From Acaryochloris marina S15 (lineage in GTDB: Bacteria > Cyanobacteriota > Cyanobacteriia > Thermosynechococcales > Thermosynechococcaceae), in contig NZ_CP064923.1 of NCBI RefSeq assembly GCF_018336915.1, positions 2,010,001 through 2,042,000 on the forward strand: DNA of 32,000 bases, in the 5' to 3' direction. Numbering within the stretch: position 1 is the stretch's first letter; every line of letters begins with the position of its first letter. A model generated the notes under the pieces. It searched no databases. It worked only from the letters and a program-made list of their open reading frames with translations, and was not told where the DNA came from. Positions 14,145 through 30,472 of this stretch are shown here, in pieces. The translations under genes were made by a program, and so were the position numbers.

Positions 14145-14366
14145 TTCCGCCTTTGCGGCCCACAGGTTTTGAAGCTGACCAAAGCTCCAGTCTAGGGGCA
14201 CAAAAACCGCCGACCGTAGTATTAAAGAGTGATTTGACTATAATTGAAGGACTTGAACAACAGTTGTGGACAAATCAAGGACACCGTTATGCGAGCACTA
14301 CTGACTTCTGACTTCAGGATATTTCGCAATTGAATGGACTGTATGCCTTAGTTGCCTAACCATCCA

Positions 14367-16709
14367 ATGAAGAAATTATTCCGTTCTCAGCAGGTGCGTC
14401 TGAGCCGCTGGCTATCTTCCTCTGCCGCGTCACGTATTCCTTCGAACCGTTCTGCTCGTCGTTCTCTCAAGCAGCAATCGCCCTTGTTGTTTGTAGTGTC
14501 TGTGGCCGCTTTAACGAGCGTGATCGGCCATCGGTTCTACAACGAGCCGCAATTGATGATTGGTACCGTTGCCCCGGAAACGATTAAGGCCCCAGAGTCT
14601 GCTCAAGCCCCCGATCCCATTGCGACGTCTGCAGCCCGTGAAGCCGCCTTTCGGAATGCGGTGAGCGTGTATATGGTGAACCCATCTCAAACCGCTGCTA
14701 TTCAAGCGGATTTGGATTCTTATTTGGCAGATGTGCAAAAATTTCGAGGGTCAGCGGGAGAATTTCCCTATACAGCGATTCAGACGTTGTCCCCTGCCGT
14801 TCAACATTTTCTGCGACAACAGAATACTGGGGACTTTCAGACGCTGCTAAAGCGGGTCAATGCGACCACTCCCACTTCTACGGCCTGGCTGAAGACCAAG
14901 AATGCACAAGCTGCAATTAGAGCGCTGCGAACCTATAGAGCCAAAGAAAAAGATGGGGTGAAGTGGTCTGCCCTGATGCGTAGCATCACCCAAGCCCAGC
15001 AAGATTATCAGGCTGCTTTAGGTGCTGTTCCTCCTCGCTTACAGGGATTCTCCAGTCGGACCCTCTTAGAATTTACTGAACCTGAGTGGGCTATGGCTCA
15101 GAGAAGGCTGCGGACTGCGTTAAAACGCATTCTTACCCAAGGGATTCCGCCAGGATTGCCAGGGACAGTAATGCGGAGTGCCATCAAGGTCCAGCTCCAG
15201 GACTATCCTGCCAAAGTCCAAGCCCTGGGCATTAAATTATTGCCGATTGTTCTCAAGCCCAACCTCAGTATTGACCCCACCGGCACCTTGCGTCAGCGGG
15301 AAATTATTGCTGAGCAGATTCCCCCAATTCTGATTCCCATCAATAGAGATGAGGTCATTGTTAACTCGGGTGAGCGAATTTCCCAAGCTGACTTTGCCTT
15401 ACTGGAACATTTTGGCTTGAGTCGACGGGGCATCAACTTACTGGGCTTGTTTGGGACGATGGCAGCAGTCAGTGGGGGGATTGCAGTGTTTTTAGTCGTG
15501 CAACGACGCTGTCGTCTTGCATTTGACCGACGAGACTATCTGTTGGTGTTAATGCTGTCGGCCAGTGCATCCCTACTGATTTGGACGACGGCTCTGCGAT
15601 ATACCAGTTTGCCTGCGGTCGGTCTGCTAGTAGGCAGTTTCTATGGGCCTGTTTTAGGGGCAACGGTAGTCGTTATTCTCACGGGTCTGATTCCCTTAGG
15701 GCTCAATAGTGGCTTTATCGAATTGGGGGCCATTGCTGCTGGCAGTTTGGTGGCCAGTTTAGTTGCTCGTCAACGGCGTTCTCGGGAAGAGATTGCCCTG
15801 TTGGGGGTGATTGTCGCCATTACTCAAGGGGTGGCCTTATTTATCCTGATGACTCTAGCTGGGGCTCCAGTCTATAGCATTTTGGGTTTGTCTCTGATTC
15901 AGGGCTTAGTGGGATTAGGGTGGACTATTGTCGCCTTGGGTATCAGTCCCTATATCGAGCACGTGTTTGACCTAGTGACGCCCATTCGGTTGGCAGAATT
16001 GGCTAATCCCAATCGACCTTTGCTCAAGCGTCTGTCGAAGGAGGCTCCTGGAACCTTCCAACACACCATGTTTGTGGCCACTTTAGCTGAAGCAGGGGCC
16101 AGCGCTTTAGGCTGTAATGTCGAACTGGTGAGAACGGGAACCCTCTACCATGACATTGGCAAAATGCATGACCCGCAATTTTTTATTGAGAACCAGCGTG
16201 ACACCACCAATAAGCACGATCTGCTTAATGATCCTTGGCAGAGTGCTGAGATTATCAAGAAACATGTCTCTGAAGGGTTGGTAATGGCCCGTAAATGTCG
16301 TTTGCCCGCAGCCGTGCAAGCGTTTATCCCCGAGCATCAGGGCACAATGGTGATTGCGTTTTTCCACCATCAAGCCCAACAGCAGGCAGCTGCTAATCCT
16401 GACCTTGATGCGGTTCAAGAGTCTGACTTTCGCTATCCTGGCCCAGTGCCCCAATCCCGAGAGACGGGGATTGTGATGTTGGCGGATTCTTGTGAAGCGG
16501 CGTTGCGATCCCTCAAAGATGCCACTCCCGACTTAGCCTTAAAAACCATTAACAAGATCTTCAAAGGGCGCTGGCAGGATAATCAGTTAGTGGATTCTCA
16601 GCTGACCCGTGACGAGTTAAATGTATTAGCAGAGGTGTTTGTGGAAGTATGGATGCAGTTTCATCACAAACGCATTCCCTACCCCACGGCAACCATCCCC
16701 CCCAAGTAA
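14367..16709 (+). CDS. 7TM-receptor HD/HDIG phosphohydrolase (7TMR-HD, PgpH/YqfF-like)
   Basis: The track starts at TTG 14352; ATG at 14367 preferred. Large N-terminal extracytoplasmic region, then about 7 hydrophobic helices (aa ~365-540), then a C-terminal HD domain with HTMFVATLAE, LYHDIGKMHDPQFFIENQ, IPEHQGT, MLADSCEAA. Confidence 0.85.
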   Translation: MKKLFRSQQVRLSRWLSSSAASRIPSNRSARRSLKQQSPLLFVVSVAALTSVIGHRFYNEPQLMIGTVAPETIKAPESAQAPDPIATSAAREAAFRNAVSVYMVNPSQTAAIQADLDSYLADVQKFRGSAGEFPYTAIQTLSPAVQHFLRQQNTGDFQTLLKRVNATTPTSTAWLKTKNAQAAIRALRTYRAKEKDGVKWSALMRSITQAQQDYQAALGAVPPRLQGFSSRTLLEFTEPEWAMAQRRLRTALKRILTQGIPPGLPGTVMRSAIKVQLQDYPAKVQALGIKLLPIVLKPNLSIDPTGTLRQREIIAEQIPPILIPINRDEVIVNSGERISQADFALLEHFGLSRRGINLLGLFGTMAAVSGGIAVFLVVQRRCRLAFDRRDYLLVLMLSASASLLIWTTALRYTSLPAVGLLVGSFYGPVLGATVVVILTGLIPLGLNSGFIELGAIAAGSLVASLVARQRRSREEIALLGVIVAITQGVALFILMTLAGAPVYSILGLSLIQGLVGLGWTIVALGISPYIEHVFDLVTPIRLAELANPNRPLLKRLSKEAPGTFQHTMFVATLAEAGASALGCNVELVRTGTLYHDIGKMHDPQFFIENQRDTTNKHDLLNDPWQSAEIIKKHVSEGLVMARKCRLPAAVQAFIPEHQGTMVIAFFHHQAQQQAAANPDLDAVQESDFRYPGPVPQSRETGIVMLADSCEAALRSLKDATPDLALKTINKIFKGRWQDNQLVDSQLTRDELNVLAEVFVEVWMQFHHKRIPYPTATIPPK

Positions 16710-17416: not shown

Positions 17417-18291
17417 TTAGGACGCTAGGTACAACACATGTTCCATTGCTTCTCTAAGTGAACCGAAGTGCTCTAATTGGTGTCTAATTCGACTTTTAAT
17501 CCAAGCCCACGACCGTTCAATCTTATTCAAATCAGGAGAATAGGGTGGCAAGTACCACACTTCACATCCTGCGGCTTCTACCAGTTGCTCAATTCGCCCT
17601 CCCTTATGGAAGGTGGCATTATCAATGACTAACTTCTGCCCCGGTTTGAGCATCGGTATCAAACAAGTCTCAAGCCAAATTTCAAATACGGTGCGATTGC
17701 AAGCCCCTTCAATCGTGAACGGGGCCATGAGCTGCTTTCCTCTCAAAGCTGCAATCATATTGACTCGTCCACTTCTGCTACCAGACTTTAAAGCATAGAC
17801 CCGCTCACCTTTGGGACCATAGCCATAGTCATACTCATCTCGATTGTCCATCCCTGACTCGTCAGCATAGACGATATCGTCTGGGTCTACTGTTGTTAAC
17901 TTTTGGACGAACTCAGCCCGTTTGTGCTCATCGCGTTGGCGGTAGCCATAGGTCTTTTTTTTCGAGTAAATCCAATATTCTTCAGCGCTCTTGAAATAGT
18001 ACGCTCACTGATTTGCCCCTCCCACAACTCGGCCATCTGAGCTTGGGTTTTATAGCGATGTTCTTGAGCAAAAGCTCGAAACTTGTCCCAGTCTGTGATT
18101 TTGTGGCTATGGCCAAGGTGTTGTCTAGGGATGGGATGAAGATCACCTGTTTCTGCTTTGAGACGTTGCCATAGATTAATGGTGTTACGACTGATATGAA
18201 AGGTGTCACTCGCTTCTGAGGGAGGCATGCCATCAAGTTCAATAGCATCGATCACTTTGCAACGTAAATCGTAGCTGTAGATCAGGGGCAT
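17417..18291 (-). CDS. IS630-family DDE transposase expressed via -1 frameshift (orfA 17896-18291, orfB frame to 17417)
   Basis: N-terminal HTH ORF (…ISRNTINLWQRLKAETG…ISERTISRALKNIGFTRKK). The downstream frame is open from the A-run and reads KTYGYRQRDEHKRAEFVQKLTTVDPDDIVYADESGMDNRDEY… It carries DDE contexts YADESG, LVIDNATFHK, LPPYSPDLNKIERSW. Confidence 0.75.
17955..17962 (-). other. Slippery A8(G) run: putative programmed -1 ribosomal frameshift site of the IS630 transposase
   Basis: The minus strand reads ACT CGA AAA AAA AGA in frame 0. Slipping back one nucleotide gives AAG ACC TAT GGC ..., which joins the HTH and DDE frames without a stop. Confidence 0.6.
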
Positions 18292-18364: not shown

Positions 18365-19786
18365 TCACTCCAATTGACGACGCTTGATCAAAATATAGCC
18401 AGTCCCTAGCCAAAATAAGAGTAGTCCTGTAGTTAATAATAGGATTGCCACCAGGCCAAAACGAGCAATCAGAGCAGGAGCCGCAGCCGTAAAGAGTCCC
18501 CCTCCGACAATAGGTTCAAAAAATAATTGTTTGTAGGCAAACCCTTCAAAGGCACCAGAGCGATTGTCACGATCCACCATGCGCAGTAACAGAATCCCCG
18601 TTGCGGTAACGCCCATCGATTGACCCAAATCTCCAATACCTCGTTCAAACCAATGATCAGGAAAAATCTTAGGGGCGTAGTAAAGGAAAAAGACGATATT
18701 CCAAGTAATACCGACTAGGCTGAGAATCACAAAAACCCCTAAATTACTGCCAAGAACCTGCAATGAGATAGAGACTAAAGCAGTGGCGACCACAACGTCT
18801 AAAGCCAAGCCCGCAATACTCTTCATTAAAGGCTTAATAATCAGTGGACTCAAGTTTAATCGGTTCAAAATCATCTGAACTAAAATCCCCCCAATTAAAG
18901 CCATGGGAAACAAGGGGACATAGATCATGACTTCAACACCGGATCGGCCCCAAGTTGCAGCTTCTAGCCATGTCAATCCATTCAGAATTAGCCAGCCGAA
19001 GACAATGGCTATGCCCACAATGCCAAAGTTGATCGAAAGCGGATCAATCAATAATCCTTGCATCAGTTTGGCTCGACGCTTTCTGATTTCAGGTGTTTCT
19101 GTGGCAGATAGTTCTGGAATATCCTCAACATCCCCAACTCGCCTAGTGACAGATTGAATATGCTCTTGCCGACGTCCCCAACCCGCTAAAGCAGTTCCCG
19201 AAATAATGCCCGAAACAATTCCTACGGTCGCTAACCCCAAGGCCAAGTCACCTCCGTCCTGAAATCCTAGTGTCCCTAGAGTTTTAGCCATTCCACCAGC
19301 AGTGCCATGTCCCCCTTCAAAACCAATCTCGATCAATGCTCCAGAGATAGGATGGGCACCAAATACGGGCTTAAGTACCAATAGTGTGACTAGAAGCCCG
19401 ACAACGTATTGTCCCCAAGCGAGACTCTGACCAAAAACAACTTGCGGGGCAGCTTTGCGCCAAATTTCCTTGAGGCTAGGTATCTGTTCTCCCAAAAAGA
19501 GGGCAGCAAACACGATATTAATGAATAGGCCAGGAGACTGGGACCAAACGGCACGGATCGGTTCTGAGAAAATTCCATCCGCAAAGAAAGCGCCTTTTCC
19601 CAGAATCATCTGAACTAGTGCACCTAATATTTGCGGGCCTAATAGCAACCCTAAGAATCCAGCCACAATCGATTCCGGTAGGTGCAGTTGCTGGAGCCAA
19701 CGAATCTTCTGTTTAAGGTATCGACCTGCTAGTAATAGCAATGATAAAATCACGAATGCAAAAAATACGTCTTTTAGACTAAACAT
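18365..19786 (-). CDS. gltS: Na+/glutamate symporter, GltS (ESS) family
   Basis: 473 aa, polytopic. The N-terminus ILSLLLLAGRYLKQKIRWLQQLHLPESIVAGFLG parallels E. coli GltS LLLGRKL...IPEPVAGG. Conserved loops IEIGFEGGHGTAGG and GQSMGVTATGILLLR. Confidence 0.78.
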   Translation of the reverse strand: MFSLKDVFFAFVILSLLLLAGRYLKQKIRWLQQLHLPESIVAGFLGLLLGPQILGALVQMILGKGAFFADGIFSEPIRAVWSQSPGLFINIVFAALFLGEQIPSLKEIWRKAAPQVVFGQSLAWGQYVVGLLVTLLVLKPVFGAHPISGALIEIGFEGGHGTAGGMAKTLGTLGFQDGGDLALGLATVGIVSGIISGTALAGWGRRQEHIQSVTRRVGDVEDIPELSATETPEIRKRRAKLMQGLLIDPLSINFGIVGIAIVFGWLILNGLTWLEAATWGRSGVEVMIYVPLFPMALIGGILVQMILNRLNLSPLIIKPLMKSIAGLALDVVVATALVSISLQVLGSNLGVFVILSLVGITWNIVFFLYYAPKIFPDHWFERGIGDLGQSMGVTATGILLLRMVDRDNRSGAFEGFAYKQLFFEPIVGGGLFTAAAPALIARFGLVAILLLTTGLLLFWLGTGYILIKRRQLE

Positions 19787-20097: not shown

Positions 20098-22695
20098 TCA
20101 ACATGGTTGGTCGATGGGCACAAACTCTATCTCGAGACTGTTGGAGTTGCACTGCATGGGTTGAATTAAGACTTGAGGAGGATTCTTACGATTACCATTC
20201 GGCTCGAATTCAATATTGCCTGTTGCTCCCCAGGTTTTAAAGTTTGGGGCTGCTAGCGTCGATTGGGTGCCTTGACGGCTAGGCGCTTTTTGTGAACGTA
20301 ATGCTTGAATTAAGACCCGAGTCGCATCATAGGCCAATGCCGTTTGGGCTTGGACTTGCTGACCCCATAGGCTGTCTGCATGGTTCGAAAAGTCTGGGTT
20401 TGGACTTGCGTCGTGGTGCCAAGGGACAGAGACAGCTAAGGATTGTGGCAGCGACTGGGGGAGAACAGATAGCGTCTTTGGATTGTCTAATCCCCATGAA
20501 CCAACAATAGGATGTTGACCTGAATTTTCTTCAATCAGTTTGAATGCATTGTCTTGAGCTAAAGATACCTCACCATCTGGGACGATCAGTAGCGGGATGT
20601 CATTTGGATCTCCATACTGCTTTAGAGCAGCAATGGCTCCAACTGGGTCAAATTCGGAAGAGGCTAAATCTGAGAGTGGATCATTTTGTACAACAGGACT
20701 AATCACTTTCCCCCCTGCCTGTTCATAGATCTCCTTGAAATCATCCCAGAATGAATGAGTAAAAGGACTTTCAGGATTATAAAAAACCTTCACGGTGCGT
20801 TTGTTGATCACCTTGAGAAGATAATTGGCTACGGATCTTGCTTCCACGGAGGTGGTAGGAACAGTTCGAAAAAAATAACCATCCCCCTTGATTGCCAGCT
20901 CCTTGGCTGTTGAACCCGGTGAAATGATGGGTAATTGATGTTGTTTATAGATATCAAGGGTAGGTTTAGACATGTCACTGGCATAGTGACCCACAACTCC
21001 TAAAACTTCTGAAGTTTTTGATAACTTTATTGCTCGGTCTTTAGCATTTTTAATCTTATTGAAGTCATCTGCAATCACAACCTTCAGGCCGATCTTGTTG
21101 CCAATAGGATTGGGGGTGAGAAACGGAATATCCAACTGAGTGGATAGATCTGAAATATTCAAGTTCGCTTCTGTCTGGGCTTGAGCGACTCCCCTAAGCA
21201 GACGATAGGCCAATTTATGGCTAGTCAGTTTTTGGATGTTGGCATCATGCAAGAACGGAACACTTATCGCAATAGTGCGGTATTCAGCGTTCATGTTATC
21301 GAGAATGGCGTTATTGAGATAAATGAGCGTTTCAGGATCATTGCCATCATCTTGCCAGGACTCCAGCAGATTCTGGATACCTTGCGGATAGTTTTTTTGG
21401 GCTATGGCATCAGCAGCATTTCTCTTGTGACCCGGACGAAGACCTAAAACCTCCTCACCCATACTCGTAAAGTCACCGAGTTGTGGGGATGTATCTGTCC
21501 AGACATTGGTTGCCCAGATACTGACCACCATGGCACTAAGACTTAACGCTAAGAGAATCCAATATTTCAATCGGAAACCTAGAAACGAAAATCTTTGTTT
21601 GTTAGGAAGAGATGGCGTCGGCCAAGTGAGGGTTTCCACCCCAGGTTGTTGAAAAATGATGGGCAGCCAAGTCGCGTAGGGAAACTGGTCTTGAATTGAC
21701 TCTAGATCGTGGCGTGCGGAGAGCACCGCATTGTGCACTGAATTGCCTTGGGAAAAATACTGAACGAAGGAGGCTAGAAACTTGTGAGCGACTTGATCGG
21801 GTACAGGCTCTCGCATATAAACAATATAGGGAATGCTGAGACCCGAAAGATGGTGGGCTAGTCCTAAGCCATCACAAGAGTTGAGGATACACACTTGCAA
21901 TCCTCGATGGGCTGCGATGCTGAGGTGATGATGGAGGTCCTTCAGCGTTAAGCTATCGGTTTCATTGATTGAAATCACGCCCTGGTGATCTTCTGTACGA
22001 CTATGTCCAGCAAAAAATAGAAGGTCCCAACCTTTCTCATCCTTCAATGCCCTAGCGACCTGATCTCGACTTGGCTGTTTGAGGAATGTTAGGTCAATAT
22101 CAGGGATGCCCATAAGAATATCTTGCTCATGATCAAGGTCAATATTGTGATCACTTCCAAGAATCGCTAATACTCGAACAGGGATTTCCAGAGCCTTGAG
22201 CTGGGCCTGCCGATATTCTAGAGGGCCTAACGAAATTGGAATTTGAGGATTGCGCTGCACATGGTCCCAGAGCTGCCAAGGTAAACGTTGTAGTTCAGTA
22301 TCATCGGTGCGAATCAGCAGGCGTAAGTCTTTCGATGAGCCATAAAGTTCAGCGAGTTGACGGGTGATTCGCTGAAAGTCGGCTGAATCATGGTTTAACC
22401 ATTGATTCATGAGTTCTTCAAGCTGCTGGGCAGTCTGAACGCACTGTTTTTTAGCGTTTCGCAATTGAGACAGGTGCTGGTCTGACTCCGCCACAAACTC
22501 CAATCGTGTTGCTGAGCCCAAATCTAAATAGTGTTTTTGCCAGTCTGTATAGAGGGCTGCTAGATCTGTTTTAGGGGGGAGTGTTCCTTGCAAAGTGCCT
22601 TCAATGTGGAGGCTATTCTCCTGTCTCCATTCAAGGGTGGCTTGTATTCCCTGAGATAACTGACCTTGGAGTCTCAATATCACAACCCGCATCAT
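20098..22695 (-). CDS. Transmembrane CHAT (caspase-like) protease fused to an extracytoplasmic type-I (LivK/Peripla_BP_6-like) solute-binding domain
   Basis: 865 aa. aa ~120-350 form a CHAT-like domain with dyad contexts LLFFAGHSR (H231, codon 22003-22005) and VCILNSCDGLG (C274, codon 21874-21876). Single TM helix YWILLALSLSAMVVSIWATNVW (aa ~378-399, 21499-21564). aa ~405-865: helical linker (…NDPETLIYLNNA…), then a solute-binding fold (IAISVP…LRGVAQAQ…VVIADDFN…VLGVVGHYASD…PIISPGST…YFFRTVP…TALAYDATRVL…GATGNIEFEPNGNR). Confidence 0.8.
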   Translation of the reverse strand: MMRVVILRLQGQLSQGIQATLEWRQENSLHIEGTLQGTLPPKTDLAALYTDWQKHYLDLGSATRLEFVAESDQHLSQLRNAKKQCVQTAQQLEELMNQWLNHDSADFQRITRQLAELYGSSKDLRLLIRTDDTELQRLPWQLWDHVQRNPQIPISLGPLEYRQAQLKALEIPVRVLAILGSDHNIDLDHEQDILMGIPDIDLTFLKQPSRDQVARALKDEKGWDLLFFAGHSRTEDHQGVISINETDSLTLKDLHHHLSIAAHRGLQVCILNSCDGLGLAHHLSGLSIPYIVYMREPVPDQVAHKFLASFVQYFSQGNSVHNAVLSARHDLESIQDQFPYATWLPIIFQQPGVETLTWPTPSLPNKQRFSFLGFRLKYWILLALSLSAMVVSIWATNVWTDTSPQLGDFTSMGEEVLGLRPGHKRNAADAIAQKNYPQGIQNLLESWQDDGNDPETLIYLNNAILDNMNAEYRTIAISVPFLHDANIQKLTSHKLAYRLLRGVAQAQTEANLNISDLSTQLDIPFLTPNPIGNKIGLKVVIADDFNKIKNAKDRAIKLSKTSEVLGVVGHYASDMSKPTLDIYKQHQLPIISPGSTAKELAIKGDGYFFRTVPTTSVEARSVANYLLKVINKRTVKVFYNPESPFTHSFWDDFKEIYEQAGGKVISPVVQNDPLSDLASSEFDPVGAIAALKQYGDPNDIPLLIVPDGEVSLAQDNAFKLIEENSGQHPIVGSWGLDNPKTLSVLPQSLPQSLAVSVPWHHDASPNPDFSNHADSLWGQQVQAQTALAYDATRVLIQALRSQKAPSRQGTQSTLAAPNFKTWGATGNIEFEPNGNRKNPPQVLIQPMQCNSNSLEIEFVPIDQPC

Positions 22696-22732: not shown

Positions 22733-23698
22733 TCAGATCACAAAATTCTCGGTATGCTTTGCGCTGCCATAGATGAGGTCTACTGAAAAATGTTCGCAAG
22801 GGGCAGCAAGAAAGGGACGAGTCACTAGATCACCTTCGTGGCTGGAGAGGGAAAGCTGTTGGAAGGTTTGTCCATCTTCATCAATAACTGCTAACTGAAG
22901 TGTATCTGGTAATTCTTGCTCAACTACAGGTTCAACCATGATTTCGATTTGGAATTTGCCTTCTTGTTTGGGGGCCAGATACATCACCAGTTCTAAATCA
23001 AGGTCTTGTACTTGCACGATTTTGGAGACGAATACAGGGGCTTCACTATGACTCTTAAGAGGTTCTGGCACATCATCACTTTCAAAACGCATATAGGCTA
23101 AATTCAAATTCTGAGATAACTGCCAATCTGAACAAGTATTTCTAAGCGGTTCTGACAGTGCAGCAAGCTGTTGTCTTTGCTCCTGAGCCCAACTCCATAT
23201 TGTTTGGAGAACAGTCGTTTTGCAGTCAAATAGGAATTGGGGTAATTCGTCAATGGGCTGAATTTGGTGGAGATCAATTTCTCCATCGGAGGAGACAGGT
23301 TGAGAGTTAAAGCCTAAAATTTGAGCTTGCTGATAGTGCTCTTCAAGTCGAACAACGACATAGGCTAGGCGGTCATCTTGAGCATCAATCGGTACTTGAA
23401 CGCTAGTGTCCCCAGCCAGTACTGGGCAGCATTCCAACTTGCCATAGCCCTGAACCATTAGATCTGCACTCTCTAGGAATTGGGAGAGAATGGAGTCATT
23501 ACTATCACTTGCCTCAGGCTTAATTTTAAAAGCCATGCATCGCAGGTAAAAATCGACCGCGTAGAGCGCCAATCTTTTCCGAAATTCTTGCTGATTGTGA
23601 TCCGCATCAAATTTTGGATGGATATGGCTTTGTGCTTTTGCCCAGACTTTAGATGTCAAGGGTACTGGAAAGCCAAAGGAGGGAATTGCAGAGGTCAT
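22733..23698 (-). CDS. DUF1822-like protein (candidate anti-sigma/adaptor)
   Basis: 321-aa acidic soluble protein. The N-terminal segment …EFRKRLALYAVDFYLRCMAF… resembles the conserved N-terminal helix of the cyanobacterial DUF1822 family, which I recall sitting next to CHAT and sigma-like genes. Recollection only, not verified. Confidence 0.5.
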   Translation of the reverse strand: MTSAIPSFGFPVPLTSKVWAKAQSHIHPKFDADHNQQEFRKRLALYAVDFYLRCMAFKIKPEASDSNDSILSQFLESADLMVQGYGKLECCPVLAGDTSVQVPIDAQDDRLAYVVVRLEEHYQQAQILGFNSQPVSSDGEIDLHQIQPIDELPQFLFDCKTTVLQTIWSWAQEQRQQLAALSEPLRNTCSDWQLSQNLNLAYMRFESDDVPEPLKSHSEAPVFVSKIVQVQDLDLELVMYLAPKQEGKFQIEIMVEPVVEQELPDTLQLAVIDEDGQTFQQLSLSSHEGDLVTRPFLAAPCEHFSVDLIYGSAKHTENFVI

Positions 23699-23743: not shown

Positions 23744-24568
23744 CTAAAGATATCGTTTGAAATAAGGCAATAATTTTCTTAAGGTTCGTTGAAAAAAACT
23801 GGATAAGGTTCTAAATGAGATTTCCGTTTGAGCCGATAAATCTGTCCAGGTTTCTCCTTGGATATGGCGAGAAATAGCTAGGAATTGGAATGTGATATCA
23901 GGATGATTTCTCACCCAGTAGGCAGCAAGTTTTTGCTCTGGATCGGTCTCTAGAAACAACCTGAGATTGTAATAATCCGTTGTTTCAAAATCTTCAATGT
24001 CAACTTTAGAGTCTAATTTTTCTAGCACGAAGGGGTCATAGAAACAGGTGCGTCGAAATTTTTGTTCATTGAGAACATCCAAAAATTTATATTTAAAATT
24101 GCTATTTACCCAAGCCAATATAGGTTTCTCGGGTCGATAGAGTTCAGGGTTATTACAGATATACATCCATGCTTTCTGCTTAGCTTCGTTGTAGAGGTCT
24201 GTAAACATGGAGGTTGGATAGCTGTGAGCATACTTCCTTAAGCGAGTGAGTCGCCCTGACTGCTCAATGATGATAATAAGTCTTGTCAGCCTTTGCTGTC
24301 TGCTGACCGATTCTGATGGATGGCTACGAGCCTCCAATATTAGTTCTAGTAACTGCCGCTCCAGTGAATCCTCATGAGTTCGCCCCGTTAACTGCGCGAG
24401 TTGGGCTAATGCTTGCTGTTGGGGGATCGATCCCGGTAAATGGCTGCGAGCTTGCAAAAGTAATGCTAATAATTGTTGATCCATTGGGATAGAGATATTC
24501 AGACTTTGATGGGAGGCTTCTTGCACACGAAATCTGGGCAATGGTTGGGGGCTAGATTTCGTGTGCAT
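23744..24568 (-). CDS. Divergent sigma-70 family (ECF-like) RNA polymerase sigma factor
   Basis: 274 aa. Region-2-like TDLYNEAKQKAWMYICNNPELYRPEKPILAWVNSNFKYKFLDVLNE. Region-4-like HTH GETWTDLSAQTEISFRTLSSFFQRTLRKLLPYF. The N-terminal helical extension is internally duplicated. Confidence 0.6.
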   Translation of the reverse strand: MHTKSSPQPLPRFRVQEASHQSLNISIPMDQQLLALLLQARSHLPGSIPQQQALAQLAQLTGRTHEDSLERQLLELILEARSHPSESVSRQQRLTRLIIIIEQSGRLTRLRKYAHSYPTSMFTDLYNEAKQKAWMYICNNPELYRPEKPILAWVNSNFKYKFLDVLNEQKFRRTCFYDPFVLEKLDSKVDIEDFETTDYYNLRLFLETDPEQKLAAYWVRNHPDITFQFLAISRHIQGETWTDLSAQTEISFRTLSSFFQRTLRKLLPYFKRYL

Positions 24569-24920
24569 AGGGTCGCGTCCTGCAATTAAGAATATGTATT
24601 AGAGGCCTATGTCAGCCATCGCTGTAAGTTATTAGCTCTCATAAACTAGAACTTCTGCATTTTTTACAAAAGTTCATTAATTGTGTAGAGCAGAAAAAAT
24701 TAAATTCATGCATCAGAAATTATGAACATACCGTACCTGTGCTGTTTTAAGAAATGCACTTTGTACTTAAAGCTGTTTCTAAGTCTCCTGGAAATATGGC
24801 TTATGTTCTGAGTTCATATCGAGGAGTCCAAAGAAAAGAATTTGCAGAAAAATATCTCATATTCCATATCTATATGCAGAAGTGAAAATTCTTTTCAACT
24901 CGATTGATACTGTAAGCATC

Positions 24921-26048
24921 ATGTTCAATAAAAAGTGGACTTCATGTATTCGAAACCAAAATCTAAACCGGCGGCATCTTCTGGCTGGTGCGGCATCGTT
25001 GACCTTAGTAACGGCCTGTGGAAAACCAGCTTCTTCTCCAAAGGTGATTCCCAATCCGAGCATTACATGGCGGATGATCACCAGTTGGCCCCAGTCATTG
25101 GATGTTATTTTTGGAACCTTGCAGACCTTTACCCAGCAGATCAGCAAGATGACCGATGGTCGATTTACGATCGATCTATTTGCGGCGGATGAAGTGGTCC
25201 CGGCTCTTAAGGTGATGGATGCGGTCAGTGATGGCTCAGTTGAATGTGGCCATACGGCTTCCTATTACTATTTGGGAAAACAACTCGCTTTGGCCTTTGG
25301 CACCACGATGCCTTTTGGCCTGACTGCTCAGCAGCAGAATGCTTGGCTCTATCACCATGGAGGATTGGAGGCCATTCAGGCTCTTTATGCAGACTTCAAT
25401 CTGATTAACTTTCCAGCGGGCAATACGGGAGGGCAGATGGGGGGCTGGTTCAAACGCAAGATTAACTCGACTGCTGATCTCCAAGGATTGAAAATGCGTA
25501 TTCCTGGTTTAGGTGGGGAAATTATGAGTCGTCTTGGCGTTAATGTCCAAGTGATTCCAGGTAGCGAGATTTTCTTAGCTCTGCAGCAGGGGGCAATTGA
25601 TGCGGCAGATTGGATTGGCCCGTATGACGATACCAAGTTGGGATTAAACAAGGCTGCTAAATATTACTATTCACCTGGGTGGTGGGAACCTGGTGCGACT
25701 CTTGATGCTCTGGTCAATCGCTCAGCCTGGGACAAACTGCCTCCAGACTACCAGCAAATTTTTAAGACAGCCGCCTACGAAGCTAATCTCAGCATGTTGT
25801 CTCAATATACGGTTCTCAACCAAAAAGCTGTTTCCCAGTTGCAAAAGGACGGCACTCAAGTCTTGACCTATGGCAATGATATTTTGCAGGCGGCTCGCAG
25901 AGAGACATTTGAGCTGTACCAGGAAAAAGCAGAACGGGATCAGACATTTAGAAAAATTTATGAACCTTGGAAACGGTTTTGCGATCGCGCCACACAATGG
26001 CATCAACTCAACGAATTGAAATTTAGCCAGTTTGTCGCTAGCCCCTAG
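24921..26048 (+). CDS. dctP: TRAP transporter substrate-binding protein, DctP family (Tat-type lipoprotein signal)
   Basis: The track starts at GTG 24882; ATG at 24921 gives MFNKKWTSCIRNQNLNRRHLLAGAASLTLVTAC (twin-Arg plus lipobox). The mature part (ITWRMITSWPQSLD…, GHTASYYYLGK, GGQMGGWFKRKI, WIGPYDD, YYYSPGWWEPG) matches the DctP subfamily often annotated as the mannitol/chloroaromatic type. Confidence 0.85.
   Translation: MFNKKWTSCIRNQNLNRRHLLAGAASLTLVTACGKPASSPKVIPNPSITWRMITSWPQSLDVIFGTLQTFTQQISKMTDGRFTIDLFAADEVVPALKVMDAVSDGSVECGHTASYYYLGKQLALAFGTTMPFGLTAQQQNAWLYHHGGLEAIQALYADFNLINFPAGNTGGQMGGWFKRKINSTADLQGLKMRIPGLGGEIMSRLGVNVQVIPGSEIFLALQQGAIDAADWIGPYDDTKLGLNKAAKYYYSPGWWEPGATLDALVNRSAWDKLPPDYQQIFKTAAYEANLSMLSQYTVLNQKAVSQLQKDGTQVLTYGNDILQAARRETFELYQEKAERDQTFRKIYEPWKRFCDRATQWHQLNELKFSQFVASP
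25981..25988. repeat. HIP1 palindrome GCGATCGC
   Basis: Exact 8-mer read in sequence. Confidence 0.95.
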
Positions 26049-26089
26049 CCACATTGGGACTTAGAAGCTAAGGGTCTTACCGCAGCTAA

Positions 26090-26695
26090 TTGCTTAATCA
26101 ACCCATCGAACACTCAAGGCATGGACTTGAGAAGGATACCCCTGTGTTTAAATTACTCAAATATTGGTCACTTAAAATTGACGGAATAAGCACCCGTATT
26201 GGCTCGCTTAGTTCCTGGTTCGTCTTATGCATGATTTTGATTGGAGCCTGGAATGTAGTGGGTCGATATGTGGGCCGTATTATTGGCACTAATTTATCGT
26301 CGAATACACTTCTGGAGCTACAGTGGCAGCTATTTGCAGCGGTCGTATTTCTAGGGGCTGCCTGTACCTTAAAGCAGAACGAGCATGTCCGGGTGGATGT
26401 GTTTTATAAGGACTTAAACCCGAGACAAAAAGGTCTTGCCAATCTCTTGGGCACGCTGGTATTTCTAGTGCCCTTTAGCATCACCCTTATCTATGTCTCT
26501 TGGCGCTCCGTCTGGAATGCCTGTGCTATTTGGGAAGTTTCGCCCAACCCCGGTGGGTTGCCCCTGTGTCCCCCGAAAGCGCTGATGATCCTTGGCTTCT
26601 TGCTCTTATTGGCCCAGGGATGTTCGGAAGCGATTAAAAGCTGGGAAATATTCAGAGCTGGATTGCCTACAAGCGAGGACAAGCATCATGGCTGA
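26090..26695 (+). CDS. dctQ: TRAP transporter small permease, DctQ family
   Basis: About 4 TM helices (SSWFVLCMILIGAWNVVGRY, LQWQLFAAVVFLGAACTL, LANLLGTLVFLVPFSITLIYV, ALMILGFLLLLAQG). Lies between dctP and dctM. Start uncertain (TTG 26090 or GTG 26144). Confidence 0.7.
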   Translation: MLNQPIEHSRHGLEKDTPVFKLLKYWSLKIDGISTRIGSLSSWFVLCMILIGAWNVVGRYVGRIIGTNLSSNTLLELQWQLFAAVVFLGAACTLKQNEHVRVDVFYKDLNPRQKGLANLLGTLVFLVPFSITLIYVSWRSVWNACAIWEVSPNPGGLPLCPPKALMILGFLLLLAQGCSEAIKSWEIFRAGLPTSEDKHHG

Positions 26696-28019
26696 AGGCG
26701 GATTTGGATTACTGATGTTTGCAGGGGCTTTGGCACTTCTGTCTTTGGGGTACCCCGTTGCCTTCTCTTTGGGAGGGGTTGCCATTGGCTTTGGTTTTAT
26801 TGGGGTGGGGTTTGGGGTGTTCGATCCCATCTTTTTGACAGCCTTGCCCTATCGCATTTACGGCATTATGGAAAACTACACGCTCCTGGCCATTCCCTAT
26901 TTTATTTTTCTAGGAGCGATGTTGGATAAAACGGGGATTGCTAAGCGCCTACTGGAAACCATTGGACTACTCTTAGGACGTGTCCGAGGTGGGTTAGCCA
27001 TAGCTATTATTTTGGTTGGCGCATTGCTGGCAGCATCAACAGGGGTTGTTGCTGCCACTGTGGTGATGATGGGCCTTATTTCGATGCCGATCATGCTGGA
27101 GCATGGCTATAGCAAAGAATTAGCGGCGGGCGTGATTGTCGCCTCTGGAACCTTGGGGCAAATCATTCCCCCCAGTTTGGTACTGATTGTTCTGGGCGAT
27201 CAACTAGGAATATCCGTTGGAGACCTATTTATGGGGTCTGTCATTCCCGGTCTCATGATGGTGGGTGCTTTTGTCGGCCATGTGCTTCTCATGGTTCACT
27301 TAAAACCAGAAATGGCTCCAGCGCTTCCTCCTGAAGCATCAAAAGTGAATCGTATCTGGCTTAGACAACAAGTGTTGAGAGCCGTATTGCCCCCTCTTTT
27401 CTTGATCATATTGGTCCTTGGCAGCATCTTTTTTGGGATTGCGACCCCCACTGAGGCAGGGGCTGTGGGATGTATCGGCACCATGGTTCTCGCCCAAGCT
27501 TATGGCCAATTGAATGGGCCTGCTCTGCAAGAAGTCTGTCAATCCACCCTGCGATTTACTTGCATGGTGATCTTTATTTTGATTGGCTCCACTGCCTTTT
27601 CACTCGTGTTTCGAGGTTTACAGGGCGATCGCTTATTGTTTGATCTATTGGTCAATTTGCCGGGTGGAAAAATCGGGTTTCTACTGGTCAATATGCTGGT
27701 TATCTTTTTGCTGGGATTCTTTATTGATTTCTTTGAAATTGCCTTTATATTGATGCCCATTTTTGCTCCAGTTGCTGAGTCGTTAGGGCTAGATTTGGTT
27801 TGGTATGGTGTCGTCATTGGAGCTAATTTGCAGACCTCATTCTTGACCCCACCTTTTGGGTTTGCGCTGTTTTTCTTAAGAGGGGTTGCGCCACCAGAAG
27901 TGACCACTCAAGATATCTATCGGGGGGCCATCCCGTTTATCTGTGTGCAGCTAATCATCCTGGCTCTAATCATTATCTTTCCAAGTACAGTCACTTTTTT
28001 GCCTTCAACTCTAAGTTGA
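26688..28019 (+). CDS. dctM: TRAP transporter large permease, DctM family
   Basis: The track ORF begins at 26592 inside dctQ. The ATG at 26688 (MAEGGFGLLMFAGALALLSLGYPVAFSLGG…) gives the typical DctM N-terminus and an 8-nt ATGGCTGA overlap with the dctQ stop. Polytopic throughout. Confidence 0.9.
   Translation: MAEGGFGLLMFAGALALLSLGYPVAFSLGGVAIGFGFIGVGFGVFDPIFLTALPYRIYGIMENYTLLAIPYFIFLGAMLDKTGIAKRLLETIGLLLGRVRGGLAIAIILVGALLAASTGVVAATVVMMGLISMPIMLEHGYSKELAAGVIVASGTLGQIIPPSLVLIVLGDQLGISVGDLFMGSVIPGLMMVGAFVGHVLLMVHLKPEMAPALPPEASKVNRIWLRQQVLRAVLPPLFLIILVLGSIFFGIATPTEAGAVGCIGTMVLAQAYGQLNGPALQEVCQSTLRFTCMVIFILIGSTAFSLVFRGLQGDRLLFDLLVNLPGGKIGFLLVNMLVIFLLGFFIDFFEIAFILMPIFAPVAESLGLDLVWYGVVIGANLQTSFLTPPFGFALFFLRGVAPPEVTTQDIYRGAIPFICVQLIILALIIIFPSTVTFLPSTLS
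27625..27632. repeat. HIP1 palindrome GCGATCGC
   Basis: Exact 8-mer read in sequence. Confidence 0.95.
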
Positions 28020-28305
28020 ATTTGCTTGAACTATAACGAGTCAATAGATCTCATTCTTGATGTAGTTTGAAGTTGGTTTAGTGCTTTGTCTTAATTGCTT
28101 GAGGTAGATGCTCAATTGTGTGCTTAGTCACTCTTTTGATAGCTAGATTTAATGAGAATAACTCCAGATTTGAAATCGATTTAAGCCCTGAGTTATTGAT
28201 TTTAGAAATTTGCAGAAACTGGAGATCTTTTCCATATAGATCAATAAGCTAGCCGCCTGCTCAATGCAGTGGAACTTACCAATATCAAAAATATGGAGAC
28301 AAATA

Positions 28306-29070
28306 ATGAAGCACTTCCTCTATTGGTTTTTAGGTGATACTGCTGGGCGAACGATTGTAGCTTGGTGGAATTGGTTGTGGGGAAAGCCCCTGGAGTCTGG
28401 AGGGGAAGTGACCCTAGAAGCAGCAAAAGAATCCCTGGCTCAAATGCAGGGTTCTGTCCAAAAATTAACTGAATCAGTCTCTAGAGTGATGGCTGTTTAC
28501 CAGCAGGCTCAGGGGCGATACGAAGTCAAGAAAAAGGAACTTAGCCATGCTGAAGAACAAGCCGGTTTGGCTATGGATCAGGGCAATGATGAGGCAACTA
28601 GAATTGCGATCGCAAGAGTGATCTCCTTAGAGCAACTCCTGCCGCAACTCCAAGAGCGAGTTGAACAAGCCCAGAATATGAAGCGGGAATCCCAACAAAA
28701 ACTGCAAGCAGAGCGAGAAAAGCTAGAGGCTTGCAAATTGGAGATGGGAAATCTCAAAGCTATTTCAGAAATGAATGAAGCGTTGAACCAGGTCATGACC
28801 CTAACGAGTGAATTTGGCCTAGACACTGCTCGATCTCAGTTTGATGATTCTGAGCAAGCCATCAAAAATCGTCATCTCCAGATTAATAGCCAGTTCGAAC
28901 TATCGCGAAATCCCCACGAGCAATTTGAACAACAACTAAACCAGCTCAGCCAAGCTGATGCCATTGAGCAGCGGCTGCAAAAACTGCGTCGACAAAAAGA
29001 GGCGCATTTAAAAGCAGTCCCAGATATTCGGCAAACCCGTCCCGCAAAATCTGAGCCAGAACCAGGATAA
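28306..29070 (+). CDS. PspA/IM30 (Vipp1-like) family coiled-coil protein with an atypical Trp-rich hydrophobic N-terminus
   Basis: ATG 28306 is preceded by GGAG at 28295-28298. Coiled-coil register parallels PspA/Vipp1: LEAAKESLAQMQGSVQKLTESVSRV…, HAEEQAGLAMDQGNDEATRIAIARVISLEQLLPQLQERVEQAQ…, KLEACKLEMGNLKA…, ARSQFDDSEQAIKNR. The N-terminus MKHFLYWFLGDTAGRTIVAWWNWLWG is unusual for the family. Confidence 0.55.
   Translation: MKHFLYWFLGDTAGRTIVAWWNWLWGKPLESGGEVTLEAAKESLAQMQGSVQKLTESVSRVMAVYQQAQGRYEVKKKELSHAEEQAGLAMDQGNDEATRIAIARVISLEQLLPQLQERVEQAQNMKRESQQKLQAEREKLEACKLEMGNLKAISEMNEALNQVMTLTSEFGLDTARSQFDDSEQAIKNRHLQINSQFELSRNPHEQFEQQLNQLSQADAIEQRLQKLRRQKEAHLKAVPDIRQTRPAKSEPEPG
28606..28613. 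repeat. HIP1 palindrome GCGATCGC
   Basis: Exact 8-mer read in sequence. Confidence 0.95.
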
Positions 29071-29116
29071 CGCCACCCATCGCAGAAAAAAATAATGAAA
29101 CTACTTGTAGGTGAAT

Positions 29117-30472
29117 ATGATGCAATTTAAAGCTGCCCTCCCTAAAATCCCCCCTATCCTCTATTTACTAGGCATAGGGGGAGTTATGGGATTTTCTCTT
29201 AATGCTCCCAACTGGCTTGATCGGCAGCCGGATAGTCTAGCGAACCGTCGTAGTCTGGGACAAATCAGCTTTAGTCAAGCCAATGCCAGTGAAGCAGAAC
29301 GCCAAGGTATTCAAGCGTTTGCGGACGGAAACTATAATGCTGCTTCAACTTATTTCACTTTTGCCAGCAAGGCTTCTCCCTCTGATCCCATTCCCCTCAT
29401 CTATGGTGAAAATGCTCGGTGGATAAACCAAAAACCGCTGCATGTAGCTGCCATGGTTCCCCTGGGGAGCAACCGAGAAGTTGCCCTAGAGATGCTACGG
29501 GGGCTAGCTATGGCCCAACAAGACTATAACCGTGGCCCTAATAAGGTGGTCATCGAAATATTTAACGATGAGAATGATCCAGAGTTAGCAAAAACCATTG
29601 CCCAGCAGATTGTTAAAGATGCCAGCATCAAAGCCGTGATTGGTCCGAATGCCTCGAATGCTGCGTTGCATGCAGGTCCTATTTTCAATGCGGCTGGAGT
29701 GGTGATGATTACGCCTACTAGTTTTGCCAACCAGCTGTCGGGGCTTGGAGAATATATTTTTCGAACCACTCCCAAGATTCGGCATCTCACCGATACCCTT
29801 GCCCACTATTCAGTCCACCAAGTTCGGCGAAAAAAGGTAGCAGTTTGTTATGACTCGGATGCCGCCGACAACCTTTCTTTTAAGGATGAGTTTATTGCTG
29901 CTCTACTGGAGCAAGGGGGAACACATATTCCCACAGACTGTGATTTTTCATCTCCTGCCTTTGATGCTAAGGATATGGTCGCAAAGCTGATTAGTGATGG
30001 TGCAGATGCCGTTCTCCTCACCCCTCATATCGATCGATTGGATCGCTTGATAGATCTATCCCGTGAGAACAAATGGCGAATGGTGTTAATGGGTAGCCCC
30101 AGTCTACAAACCCGAAAGATTTTGGAAATTGGTCAGGGAGATTTGAATGGCGTTGTTATTCCTGTTCCCTATCATGCTGAGATGCCAACTGCTCAAGCCT
30201 TTGCCAAGGAGGTCAAAGCTCAGTTTGAGGTTGTTCCCACCTGGCGAACCTTTGCCTCCATGGATGCCCTCAGTGCCATTCTAAAAGTGGGGCAGCATTC
30301 CACCCGTCGACCGCAATTTCAGCAACGATTGCGGTCAGCCAACTTCAAGATGAGTGGATCTGCAGAAGACGTCCGATTCTTGCCCTCCGGTGATCGGATC
30401 GGGAACAGTGTCTTAGTTCAAATTCGCCCCGCAGCCAAGGGATATCACTTTCGCCTGATCAGTTCGAAATAA
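29117..30472 (+). CDS. Membrane-anchored type-I solute-binding protein (LivK/Peripla_BP_6-like), paralogue of the CHAT protein's sensor domain
   Basis: The track starts at GTG 29111; ATGs at 29117 and 29120. N-terminal TM PPILYLLGIGGVMGFSL. Then SLGQ…ERQGIQAFADGNYNAA…DPIPLIYGENA, followed by VAAMVPLGSN…LRGLAMAQQDYN…IEIFNDENDP…AVIGPNASN…VMITPTS…YIFRTTP…WRTFASMDAL…GSAEDVRFLPSGDR. Same order of motifs as aa 405-865 of the CHAT protein. Confidence 0.75.
   Translation: MMQFKAALPKIPPILYLLGIGGVMGFSLNAPNWLDRQPDSLANRRSLGQISFSQANASEAERQGIQAFADGNYNAASTYFTFASKASPSDPIPLIYGENARWINQKPLHVAAMVPLGSNREVALEMLRGLAMAQQDYNRGPNKVVIEIFNDENDPELAKTIAQQIVKDASIKAVIGPNASNAALHAGPIFNAAGVVMITPTSFANQLSGLGEYIFRTTPKIRHLTDTLAHYSVHQVRRKKVAVCYDSDAADNLSFKDEFIAALLEQGGTHIPTDCDFSSPAFDAKDMVAKLISDGADAVLLTPHIDRLDRLIDLSRENKWRMVLMGSPSLQTRKILEIGQGDLNGVVIPVPYHAEMPTAQAFAKEVKAQFEVVPTWRTFASMDALSAILKVGQHSTRRPQFQQRLRSANFKMSGSAEDVRFLPSGDRIGNSVLVQIRPAAKGYHFRLISSK

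Follow-up and report, generated by a model that had tools for sequence, protein, structure and literature searches.

A gene on the reverse strand of the Acaryochloris marina S15 window (i.e. the whole 32,000-nucleotide stretch of contig NZ_CP064923.1 analysed here) encodes a protein of 865 amino acids that is best explained as a receptor-protease that spans the membrane once and belongs to the EACC2-CHAT family of cyanobacteria, a reading that we regard as probable, though far from certain, when taken as a whole. Its architecture and topology, i.e. a caspase-like CHAT protease predicted to lie in the cytoplasm, a single transmembrane helix and a LivJ/LivK-type Venus-flytrap domain predicted to lie outside the membrane, are very likely to be as described here. 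The receptor-protease is real, conserved and mis-annotated, and its main interest is as an experimental entry point.

Domain architecture, active site and topology

Pfam searches of the 865-residue receptor identified CHAT at amino acids 195-332 (43 bits, cut-off 24), Peripla_BP_6 at 537-837 (79 bits, cut-off 31.7, E-value 6e-22) and, overlapping the binding domain at approximately 534-837, ANF_receptor, also above its curated threshold. An AlphaFold2 model of the entire receptor (predicted local distance difference test score, pLDDT, of 88) gave the order of the units as three strands and three long helices (amino acids 1-120), the CHAT fold (124-349), a linker of low confidence, a helix at 373-395, three short ones at 422-467 and a two-lobe alpha/beta domain that extends to the C-terminus. 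The order of CHAT domain, transmembrane helix and LivK-type domain that the first-pass annotation of this DNA had proposed is the one found here. The parts that it listed (CHAT domain, transmembrane helix, linker and binding domain) are all present, but the list overlooked a separate alpha+beta domain at amino acids 1-120. The features of the gene are as follows:

20098..22695, minus strand: receptor-protease gene (open reading frame of 865 amino acids)
22336..22695, minus strand: N-terminal alpha+beta domain, amino acids 1-120 (AlphaFold2; fits the EACC2 description)
21640..22335, minus strand: CHAT (caspase-fold) protease domain, amino acids 121-352 (Pfam, Foldseek, dyad)
22003-22005, minus strand: codon of the putative catalytic His231 (FFAGH motif)
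21874-21876, minus strand: codon of the putative catalytic Cys274 (LNSCDG motif)
21499..21570, minus strand: single transmembrane helix, amino acids 376-399 (sole hydropathy peak; AlphaFold2 helix 373-395)
21292..21438, minus strand: three-helix cap resembling tetratricopeptide repeats (TPRs), amino acids 420-468, predicted extracytoplasmic (AlphaFold2 helices 422-432, 436-450 and 454-467)
20098..21291, minus strand: LivJ/LivK-type (type I, HAAT family) Venus-flytrap domain, amino acids 469-865 plus stop (Pfam, PDB profiles, Foldseek)
20149-20151 and 20101-20103, minus strand: codons of the covarying cysteines C849 and C865

When 5.8 billion proteins were searched, over 100 full-length relatives were recovered in which all three Pfam domains are present, and every one that bears an organism name is cyanobacterial. 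The best relative is 95% identical to the receptor, and the nearest named one, from a Thermosynechococcaceae metagenome-assembled genome, is 56% identical. Since more than 100 homologues share these domains and H231 and C274 are invariant, the fusion did not arise by chance. Most of the relatives carry the database name "ABC transporter substrate-binding protein" (NCBI and JGI), and these names, together with the strong LivK-family match, are what favor the reading of the protein as the ordinary substrate-binding protein of an ATP-binding cassette (ABC) transporter. To that reading we give almost no credence. The protein lacks both a signal peptide and a lipobox, its 400 N-terminal residues contain an intact protease and a transmembrane anchor, no ABC permease or ATPase genes adjoin the gene either here or in the related loci, and a cassette that includes a sigma factor is conserved. 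The architecture thus effectively refutes the annotation as an ABC-transporter binding protein.

In the AlphaFold2 model the N-terminal domain consists of strands 3-12, 16-25 and 31-39 followed by helices 43-63, 72-101 and 105-120, after which the CHAT fold begins at residue 124. A separate model of amino acids 1-365 reached a pLDDT of 90.7 and a predicted TM-score (pTM) of 0.90, and these scores, together with those of the entire chain, indicate that the alpha+beta domain and the CHAT domain form one rigid unit (hereafter the N-module). When amino acids 1-122 were used as a phmmer query, 105 cluster representatives were recovered from 1.84 billion proteins; they range in length from 80 to 1767 amino acids, and with few exceptions the match sits N-terminally.

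Residue conservation was assessed in an alignment of 40 homologues with 32-83% identity. The motifs that the first-pass annotation had pointed out were both found, FFAGH starting at amino acid 227 (which makes the histidine H231) and LNSCDG at 271 (which makes the cysteine C274). All 40 aligned homologues and all 34 N-modules have H231 and C274, and the flanking residues G230, S232 and N272 are likewise invariant in the 40 relatives. Foldseek comparison of the model of amino acids 1-365 with the PDB returned separase (1e-10), the SAVED-CHAT filament 8tl0 (3e-9) and the TPR-CHAT protein Csx29 (7y85, 3e-7), followed by the anti-sigma factor DdvA (2e-5) and, as weaker matches, caspase-6/CED-3 (3e-3). 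A profile built from the 34 N-modules pairs H231 and C274 with residues H355 and C402 of the 8tl0 chain. These are 47 residues apart, as are H375 and C422 of SAVED-CHAT, the dyad whose mutation abolishes activity. The claim that these two residues occupy the positions of the caspase-fold dyad is thus borne out by a profile alignment, i.e. at the level of sequence rather than of three-dimensional superposition, and the CHAT domain has the appearance of an active protease. The alternative is a catalytically dead CHAT scaffold that signals through protein-protein interactions, for which there is precedent in that some CHAT domains are incomplete, e.g. the active site of DdvA lacks three helices (PMC11506125). 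However, homologues with an overall identity of just 30-40% retain the dyad and the FFAGHS and NSCDG motifs without exception, and we consider a dead scaffold very improbable.

Hydropathy was calculated in 19-residue windows with a Kyte-Doolittle threshold of 1.6. Only amino acids 376-399 exceeded this threshold, and the one hydrophobic helix noted previously at amino acids 378-399 does correspond to nucleotides 21499-21564. Within the first 30 windows the maximum was 0.53, in agreement with the earlier statement that there is no N-terminal signal peptide. Exactly one hydrophobic segment, in the same place, is present in 39/40 homologues. In the receptor itself the N-terminal flank of this segment contains four lysine or arginine residues and no acidic ones, and the C-terminal flank contains four aspartate or glutamate residues and no lysine or arginine; across the homologues the mean number of lysines plus arginines is 3.85 on the N-terminal side versus 1.68 on the C-terminal side. 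C849 and C865 are the only cysteines of the outer domain and they covary, with both being present in 20 homologues, neither in 18 and a single one in 2, a pattern that suggests an optional disulfide stapling the last two strands of this domain. In addition, CHASE2, a known extracytoplasmic sensor, is fused to the same N-module (approximately 40% identity over amino acids 1-358) in 26 of 37 paralogues.

The predicted orientation is N-in/C-out, with the protease cytoplasmic and the binding domain extracytoplasmic, because of (i) the positive-inside bias, the absence of a signal peptide, the covarying cysteine pair and the CHASE2-bearing paralogues and (ii) the nature of the domains themselves, i.e. 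a thiol protease on one side and a periplasmic-type binding fold on the other. This is the orientation that had been proposed initially, and the charge bias, the cysteine covariation and the exchange of the modules for CHASE2 or kinase domains in paralogues are all consistent with it.

The outer part of the receptor begins with the TPR-like cap. The helical DPETLIYLNNA linker described in the first reading is indeed present; it starts at amino acid 453, lies within this three-helix cap and contains residues P454, E455, Y459, N461 and N462, which are invariant in the 40 relatives. In a relative with two binding domains (locus L014), the cap ahead of the second one matches Pfam TPR_19. That the C-terminal half folds as a LivJ/LivK-type Venus flytrap was confirmed by both sequence and structure searches. 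A profile search of PDB sequences with the binding domain returned 3td9 (9e-29), 4mlc (1e-28) and LivJ 1z15 (3e-22), and Foldseek against the PDB returned 3td9, 4q6b, 4gnr, 4n0q and Atu2422 (3ip5) with target-normalised TM-scores of 0.79-0.84. In LivJ, Ser79 and Thr102 hold the carboxylate of the ligand. These residues correspond to S573 (40/40 homologues) and T596 (threonine or serine in 32/40), and Tyr150 corresponds to F645 (tyrosine or phenylalanine in 34/40). In lobe 2, where the alignment is less certain, Tyr202 corresponds to G708, a variable position, and Glu226 to W734 (tryptophan, serine or aspartate). Our best guess from these correspondences is a carboxylate-bearing, amino-acid-like ligand. 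The small nitrogenous metabolite suggested by the first-pass annotation remains a candidate that they neither favor nor disfavor.

A three-gene cassette and its possible mechanism

The first-pass annotation regarded the receptor as a one-component system. Instead, its gene comes third in a conserved cassette that comprises an ECF-like (extracytoplasmic function) sigma factor, a DUF1822 protein and the CHAT receptor. The first two genes are as follows:

23744..24568, minus strand: divergent ECF-like sigma factor, 274 amino acids as an open reading frame, first gene (hhalign, PDB profile)
22733..23698, minus strand: DUF1822 protein, 321 amino acids, middle gene (Pfam DUF1822, 3e-31)

Only 37 nucleotides separate the receptor gene from the DUF1822 gene, and 45 separate the latter from the sigma gene. 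We collected 80 related loci, using one genome per species, of which 63 had enough upstream sequence; neighbors were identified by tblastn with the divergent proteins of the window, and the counts are therefore lower bounds. In at least 44/63 loci the gene directly upstream of CHAT is that for DUF1822, and in at least 35/63 the sigma gene accompanies it. For those loci in which the CHAT gene carries a type I periplasmic binding protein (PBP) domain, the corresponding numbers are at least 16/22 and at least 13/22. The median intergenic gaps in the related cassettes are 78 and 33 nucleotides. Pairwise distances among the three proteins are strongly correlated, with Mantel r values of 0.86 (DUF1822 versus the CHAT N-module), 0.75 and 0.79, none of which was reached in 2000 permutations. 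Among 108 flanking open reading frames of the PBP-type loci, no other family occurred more than five times. The upstream counts, the Mantel correlations and the lack of any other conserved neighbor together show that the conserved unit consists of the sigma factor, the DUF1822 protein and the CHAT receptor.

The assignment of the first gene rests on profile comparisons. A profile of 23 homologues aligned with Escherichia coli RpoE by hhalign (86.6% probability, E-value 4e-6, 155 columns) over RpoE residues 17-173, i.e. from sigma-2 to sigma-4, and a PDB profile search returned RpoE 2q1z (2e-4) and SigK 4nqw (8e-3). Sigma70_r2 or r4_2 is matched by some of the homologues. The window protein itself matched no Pfam family above threshold and is therefore a divergent member. 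Its open reading frame also includes approximately 60 N-terminal amino acids that are absent from 22 homologues. These extra residues repeat the first conserved helix region as an internal duplication, amino acids ~31-62 resembling amino acids ~73-104, and the true start codon is uncertain.

The DUF1822 protein is a candidate adaptor or substrate. A profile search of the PDB gave no match at E <= 1, and Pfam searches of 30 members of the family returned DUF1822 alone. No anti-sigma family was detected on the receptor by either Pfam or NCBIfam, its cytoplasmic part being accounted for by the alpha+beta domain and CHAT.

Of the mechanisms that these components suggest, we regard the following chain of events as the likeliest. 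A small ligand would close the flytrap outside the cell, and closure would be relayed through the single helix, probably within a dimer, as in flytrap receptors and proximity-activated caspases. The relayed signal would switch on the cytoplasmic CHAT protease, which would then cut either itself or the DUF1822 adaptor, and this cleavage would free or activate the sigma factor, leading to a transcriptional response. The logic of such a mechanism resembles that of Craspase-Csx30-RpoE or CalpL-CalpT-CalpS, with an extracellular input. We consider the full mechanism, from ligand through CHAT and cleavage to sigma, to be a serious possibility that falls a little short of being probable. The more specific version, in which the flytrap ligand switches on a caspase-like protease that cleaves an adaptor of the TRADD-N/DUF1822 type and thereby releases a dedicated sigma factor, we put forward more tentatively.

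Several points weigh against the receptor-protease reading and the mechanism attached to it. The family has been described by computation alone, and the topology is predicted by analogy and from hydropathy and charge bias. In lobe 2, the ligand contacts of LivJ (Tyr202 and Glu226) appear not to be kept. DUF1822 matches neither a solved structure nor an anti-sigma family, and binding of sigma and cleavage by the protease are candidate roles for it. Finally, 19/63 loci have no detectable DUF1822 upstream, suggesting that the protease may work without DUF1822 as well.

The last of these points also bears on an alternative in which the membrane-anchored CHAT protease cuts a substrate encoded elsewhere, in the manner of HetF and PatU3, with the sigma factor and DUF1822 merely controlling or assisting expression. 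HetF shares the layout of CHAT, transmembrane segment and C-terminal domain and cuts a substrate encoded at another site, and the receptor shows weak NCBIfam similarity to it. However, the match to the HetF model (NF045509) amounts to 29.6 bits against a cut-off of 1200, by which a HetF orthologue can be rejected, and the cassette genes are only tens of bases apart and co-evolve tightly (Mantel r 0.75-0.86). An unlinked substrate is therefore distinctly unlikely in our judgment.

If this more specific version is correct, it would constitute a mode of bacterial transmembrane signaling unlike histidine kinases, Ser/Thr kinases, cyclases or classical regulated intramembrane proteolysis, with a wiring that recalls the death-receptor, adaptor and caspase signaling of animals. 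The mechanism, if it holds, would also provide a tractable case of ligand-gated proteolytic signaling across a bacterial membrane within a compact three-gene cassette, which offers a soluble-type binding domain suited to ligand screening, a catalytic-dead protease as a control and a dedicated sigma factor as a read-out. This would be the first experimental entry into the large EACC2-caspase class of cyanobacteria. In addition, hundreds of records naming ABC-transporter binding proteins would need correction if the mechanism holds.

Exchangeable modules and genomic surroundings

The two halves of the receptor occur in other combinations. Among the 37 N-module paralogues scanned, 26 carry CHASE2, as noted above, and 5 carry a kinase domain; the other C-termini comprise pentapeptide repeats and trypsin-like, COP23, PsbP-like and PBP domains. 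Conversely, the sensor (transmembrane helix, cap and binding domain; 34-36% identity) is found on N-terminal Ser/Thr kinase domains in other cyanobacteria, i.e. in two genes of locus L071 and one each of L075 and L032:

L071:2627-4996: kinase-linked sensor
L071:5089-7440: kinase-linked sensor
L075:5002-7413: kinase-linked sensor
L032:3626-6043: kinase-linked sensor

Nostocales CHAT receptors of 1234 amino acids have two binding domains in tandem (L014:6001-9705), and the sensor also exists as stand-alone anchored proteins. One sensor with two kinds of output, and one protease with many sensors, indicate a receptor built from exchangeable parts, and a sensor module common to the receptor and to Ser/Thr kinases offers a natural experiment on one sensor driving two outputs.

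A second member of this clade of TPR-capped LivK-type proteins, a stand-alone one, is encoded within the window at 29111-30472 (plus strand). It has an N-terminal hydrophobic anchor and is 24% identical to amino acids 389-846 of the receptor, and its gene directly follows a PspA/IM30-like gene (28264-29070, plus strand).

Some genomes hold more than one copy of the system. Two cassettes lie side by side in L041, L047, L051, L053 and L057, and L017 and L025 have tandem receptor genes. These local duplications in filamentous cyanobacteria point to a lineage-specific expansion of sensors.

Upstream regions of the sigma genes were searched for shared motifs. The k-mer TTTGTAA[AC] occurs upstream of the sigma gene in 14/32 loci compared with 7.6% of background upstream regions, and in reverse complement it reads as the HLR1 direct repeat, which is bound by RpaB (consensus from PMC6525291). 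Matches to HLR1 at 14 or more of its 16 positions were found in 12/32 sigma upstream regions, including those of L007, L044, L049, L023, L058 and L065, compared with 9.2% of 466 background regions (p 4e-5). The enrichment hints that the cassettes of this family are under light/redox control. The window contains the following copy:

24663..24680, plus strand: HLR1-like (RpaB-type) direct repeat, approximately 100 nucleotides upstream of the sigma open reading frame (13/16 positions)

This repeat overlaps an inverted repeat at 24649-24675. A score of 13/16 is reached by 25% of the background regions, and light/redox control is therefore a lead for the family and not a finding for the window. We had also considered the motif as an ECF -35/-10 pair (GAAC...TCTGA), which was rejected as its spacing is inconsistent between loci and the HLR1 direct repeat fits better. 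A regulon search of the 32 kb with the k-mer found a single copy, the one that precedes the sigma gene of the cassette, which does not exceed the chance expectation for this length, and a generic scan for promoters and terminators gave nothing above shuffled expectation.

The neighboring genes are of several kinds. On the same strand as the receptor and 311 nucleotides downstream of it lies a gene of the Na+/glutamate-symporter family (18365-19786, minus strand); we rejected this gene as a conserved partner, as a homologue (67% identical) was found near the cassette in L072 only. Downstream of the symporter-like gene is an IS630-family transposase split into two parts (17417-17851 and 17896-18291, minus strand; HTH_Tnp_IS630 and DDE_3), a split that reflects either programmed frameshifting or decay of the copy. 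A seven-transmembrane HD receptor (7TMR-HDED, 7TM-7TMR_HD and HD domains) is encoded at 14352-16709 (plus strand). A TRAP transporter operon (DctP, DctQ and DctM; 24882-28019, plus strand) is divergent from the sigma gene.

Comparison with known systems

The closest description of such proteins is that of the EACC2-caspase systems by Kaur, Iyer, Burroughs and Aravind (eLife 2021; PMC8195603), a computational study in which ECF sigma factors and DUF1822 proteins were reported as neighbors. The C-termini were described as highly variable, including CHASE2 with transmembrane helices and "several small-molecule-binding domains", and the authors proposed stimulus-induced activation of the peptidase coupled to an ECF sigma factor as the final transcriptional step (PMC8195603). 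In the supplement of that paper, proteins that NCBI places in the "DUF1822 family" and that lie beside EACC2+CASPASE genes are labelled TRADD-N+TPRs. The receptor shares with this class a constant N-terminal alpha+beta domain with a caspase fold after it, a variable C-terminus that includes membrane-anchored extracellular sensors, the ECF-type sigma/helix-turn-helix and DUF1822 neighbors, and a mostly cyanobacterial range. It differs from the class as described in that a type I PBP sensor is named in neither the text nor the supplement. Judged by these described features rather than by a match to an EACC2 profile, the receptor is highly likely to be of this kind, although we place slightly less confidence in this than in the architecture itself. 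The kind has already been described by computation, and the concept of the receptor is not new; a catalogue from 2010 already lists a cyanobacterial metacaspase with a fused ANF-receptor domain.

Kaur et al. frame the EACC2-caspase systems as conflict or apoptosis devices, whereas the sensor of the present receptor looks metabolite-like. Under a conflict or immunity interpretation, the outer domain would sense an invader or danger molecule, the caspase-like domain would lead to dormancy or suicide, and the sigma factor would launch a defence programme. The placing of the class among the apoptosis-like conflict systems of multicellular bacteria (PMC8195603) supports this interpretation, as do the joining of the N-module to highly variable C-terminal domains, the duplication of cassettes within genomes (L017, L025, L051, L053 and L057) and the identity of the structural neighbors, the defence proteases SAVED-CHAT, Csx29 and DdvA. 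On the other hand, PADLOC gave no match for the receptor, DUF1822 or sigma proteins, no CRISPR or CBASS genes were found, and no defence genes are kept nearby; the neighbors within the window are transporters and housekeeping genes; the sensor has a LivK fold of the metabolite type, which Ser/Thr kinases employ as well; and the nearest named relative belongs to Thermosynechococcaceae (the 56%-identical protein). We consider a conflict system unlikely, though not implausible, and retain the receptor-protease with a metabolite-type sensor as our preferred reading.

HetF of Anabaena PCC 7120, a CHAT-transmembrane-TPR protein, cleaves PatU3, and its proteolysis has been shown (PMC8406250, PMC9457339). 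Like HetF, the receptor is cyanobacterial and has an N-terminal CHAT domain, one transmembrane segment and a non-catalytic C-terminal domain. In contrast to the receptor, HetF has TPRs in place of the binding-protein fold, has no sigma/DUF1822 cassette and acts in cell division and heterocyst differentiation.

The genetic coupling of a protease to an ECF-type sigma factor is shared with Craspase (Csx29 TPR-CHAT/Csx30/RpoE), CalpL-CalpT-CalpS and SAVED-CHAT. In two of the three CRISPR type III sigma modules the protease is a CHAT protease, whose fold and dyad are closely similar to those of the receptor. However, Craspase, CalpL and SAVED-CHAT lie in the cytosol and respond to target RNA or cyclic oligoadenylates, whereas the input of the receptor is predicted to be extracytoplasmic. 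In the DdvA-DdvS pair of Myxococcus xanthus, DdvA is a transmembrane anti-sigma factor with a TPR-CHAT domain (PMC11506125). It resembles the receptor in being a single-pass membrane protein that contains CHAT and is tied to an ECF sigma factor, but the similarity is confined to the CHAT fold and the topology is opposite to that predicted here, the CHAT domain of DdvA being periplasmic and its zinc anti-sigma domain cytoplasmic, whereas the receptor has no detectable anti-sigma domain.

The sensor half has its own set of relatives. Its type I binding fold is that of LivJ/LivK, of receptors of the ANF/mGluR type and of the cyanobacterial proteins in which a Pkinase domain, a transmembrane helix and a PBP are joined (TM-score about 0.8), and the kinase-linked paralogues have the same TPR-like cap. 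In contrast to the LivJ/LivK proteins, the receptor has no signal peptide, its membrane anchor follows 375 residues predicted to be cytoplasmic, and no ABC-importer genes adjoin it. As in the flytrap receptors, a flytrap predicted to lie outside the cell would be coupled via a membrane span to a cytoplasmic output; unlike in those receptors, this output would be a protease rather than a kinase, a cyclase or a G-protein-coupled receptor.

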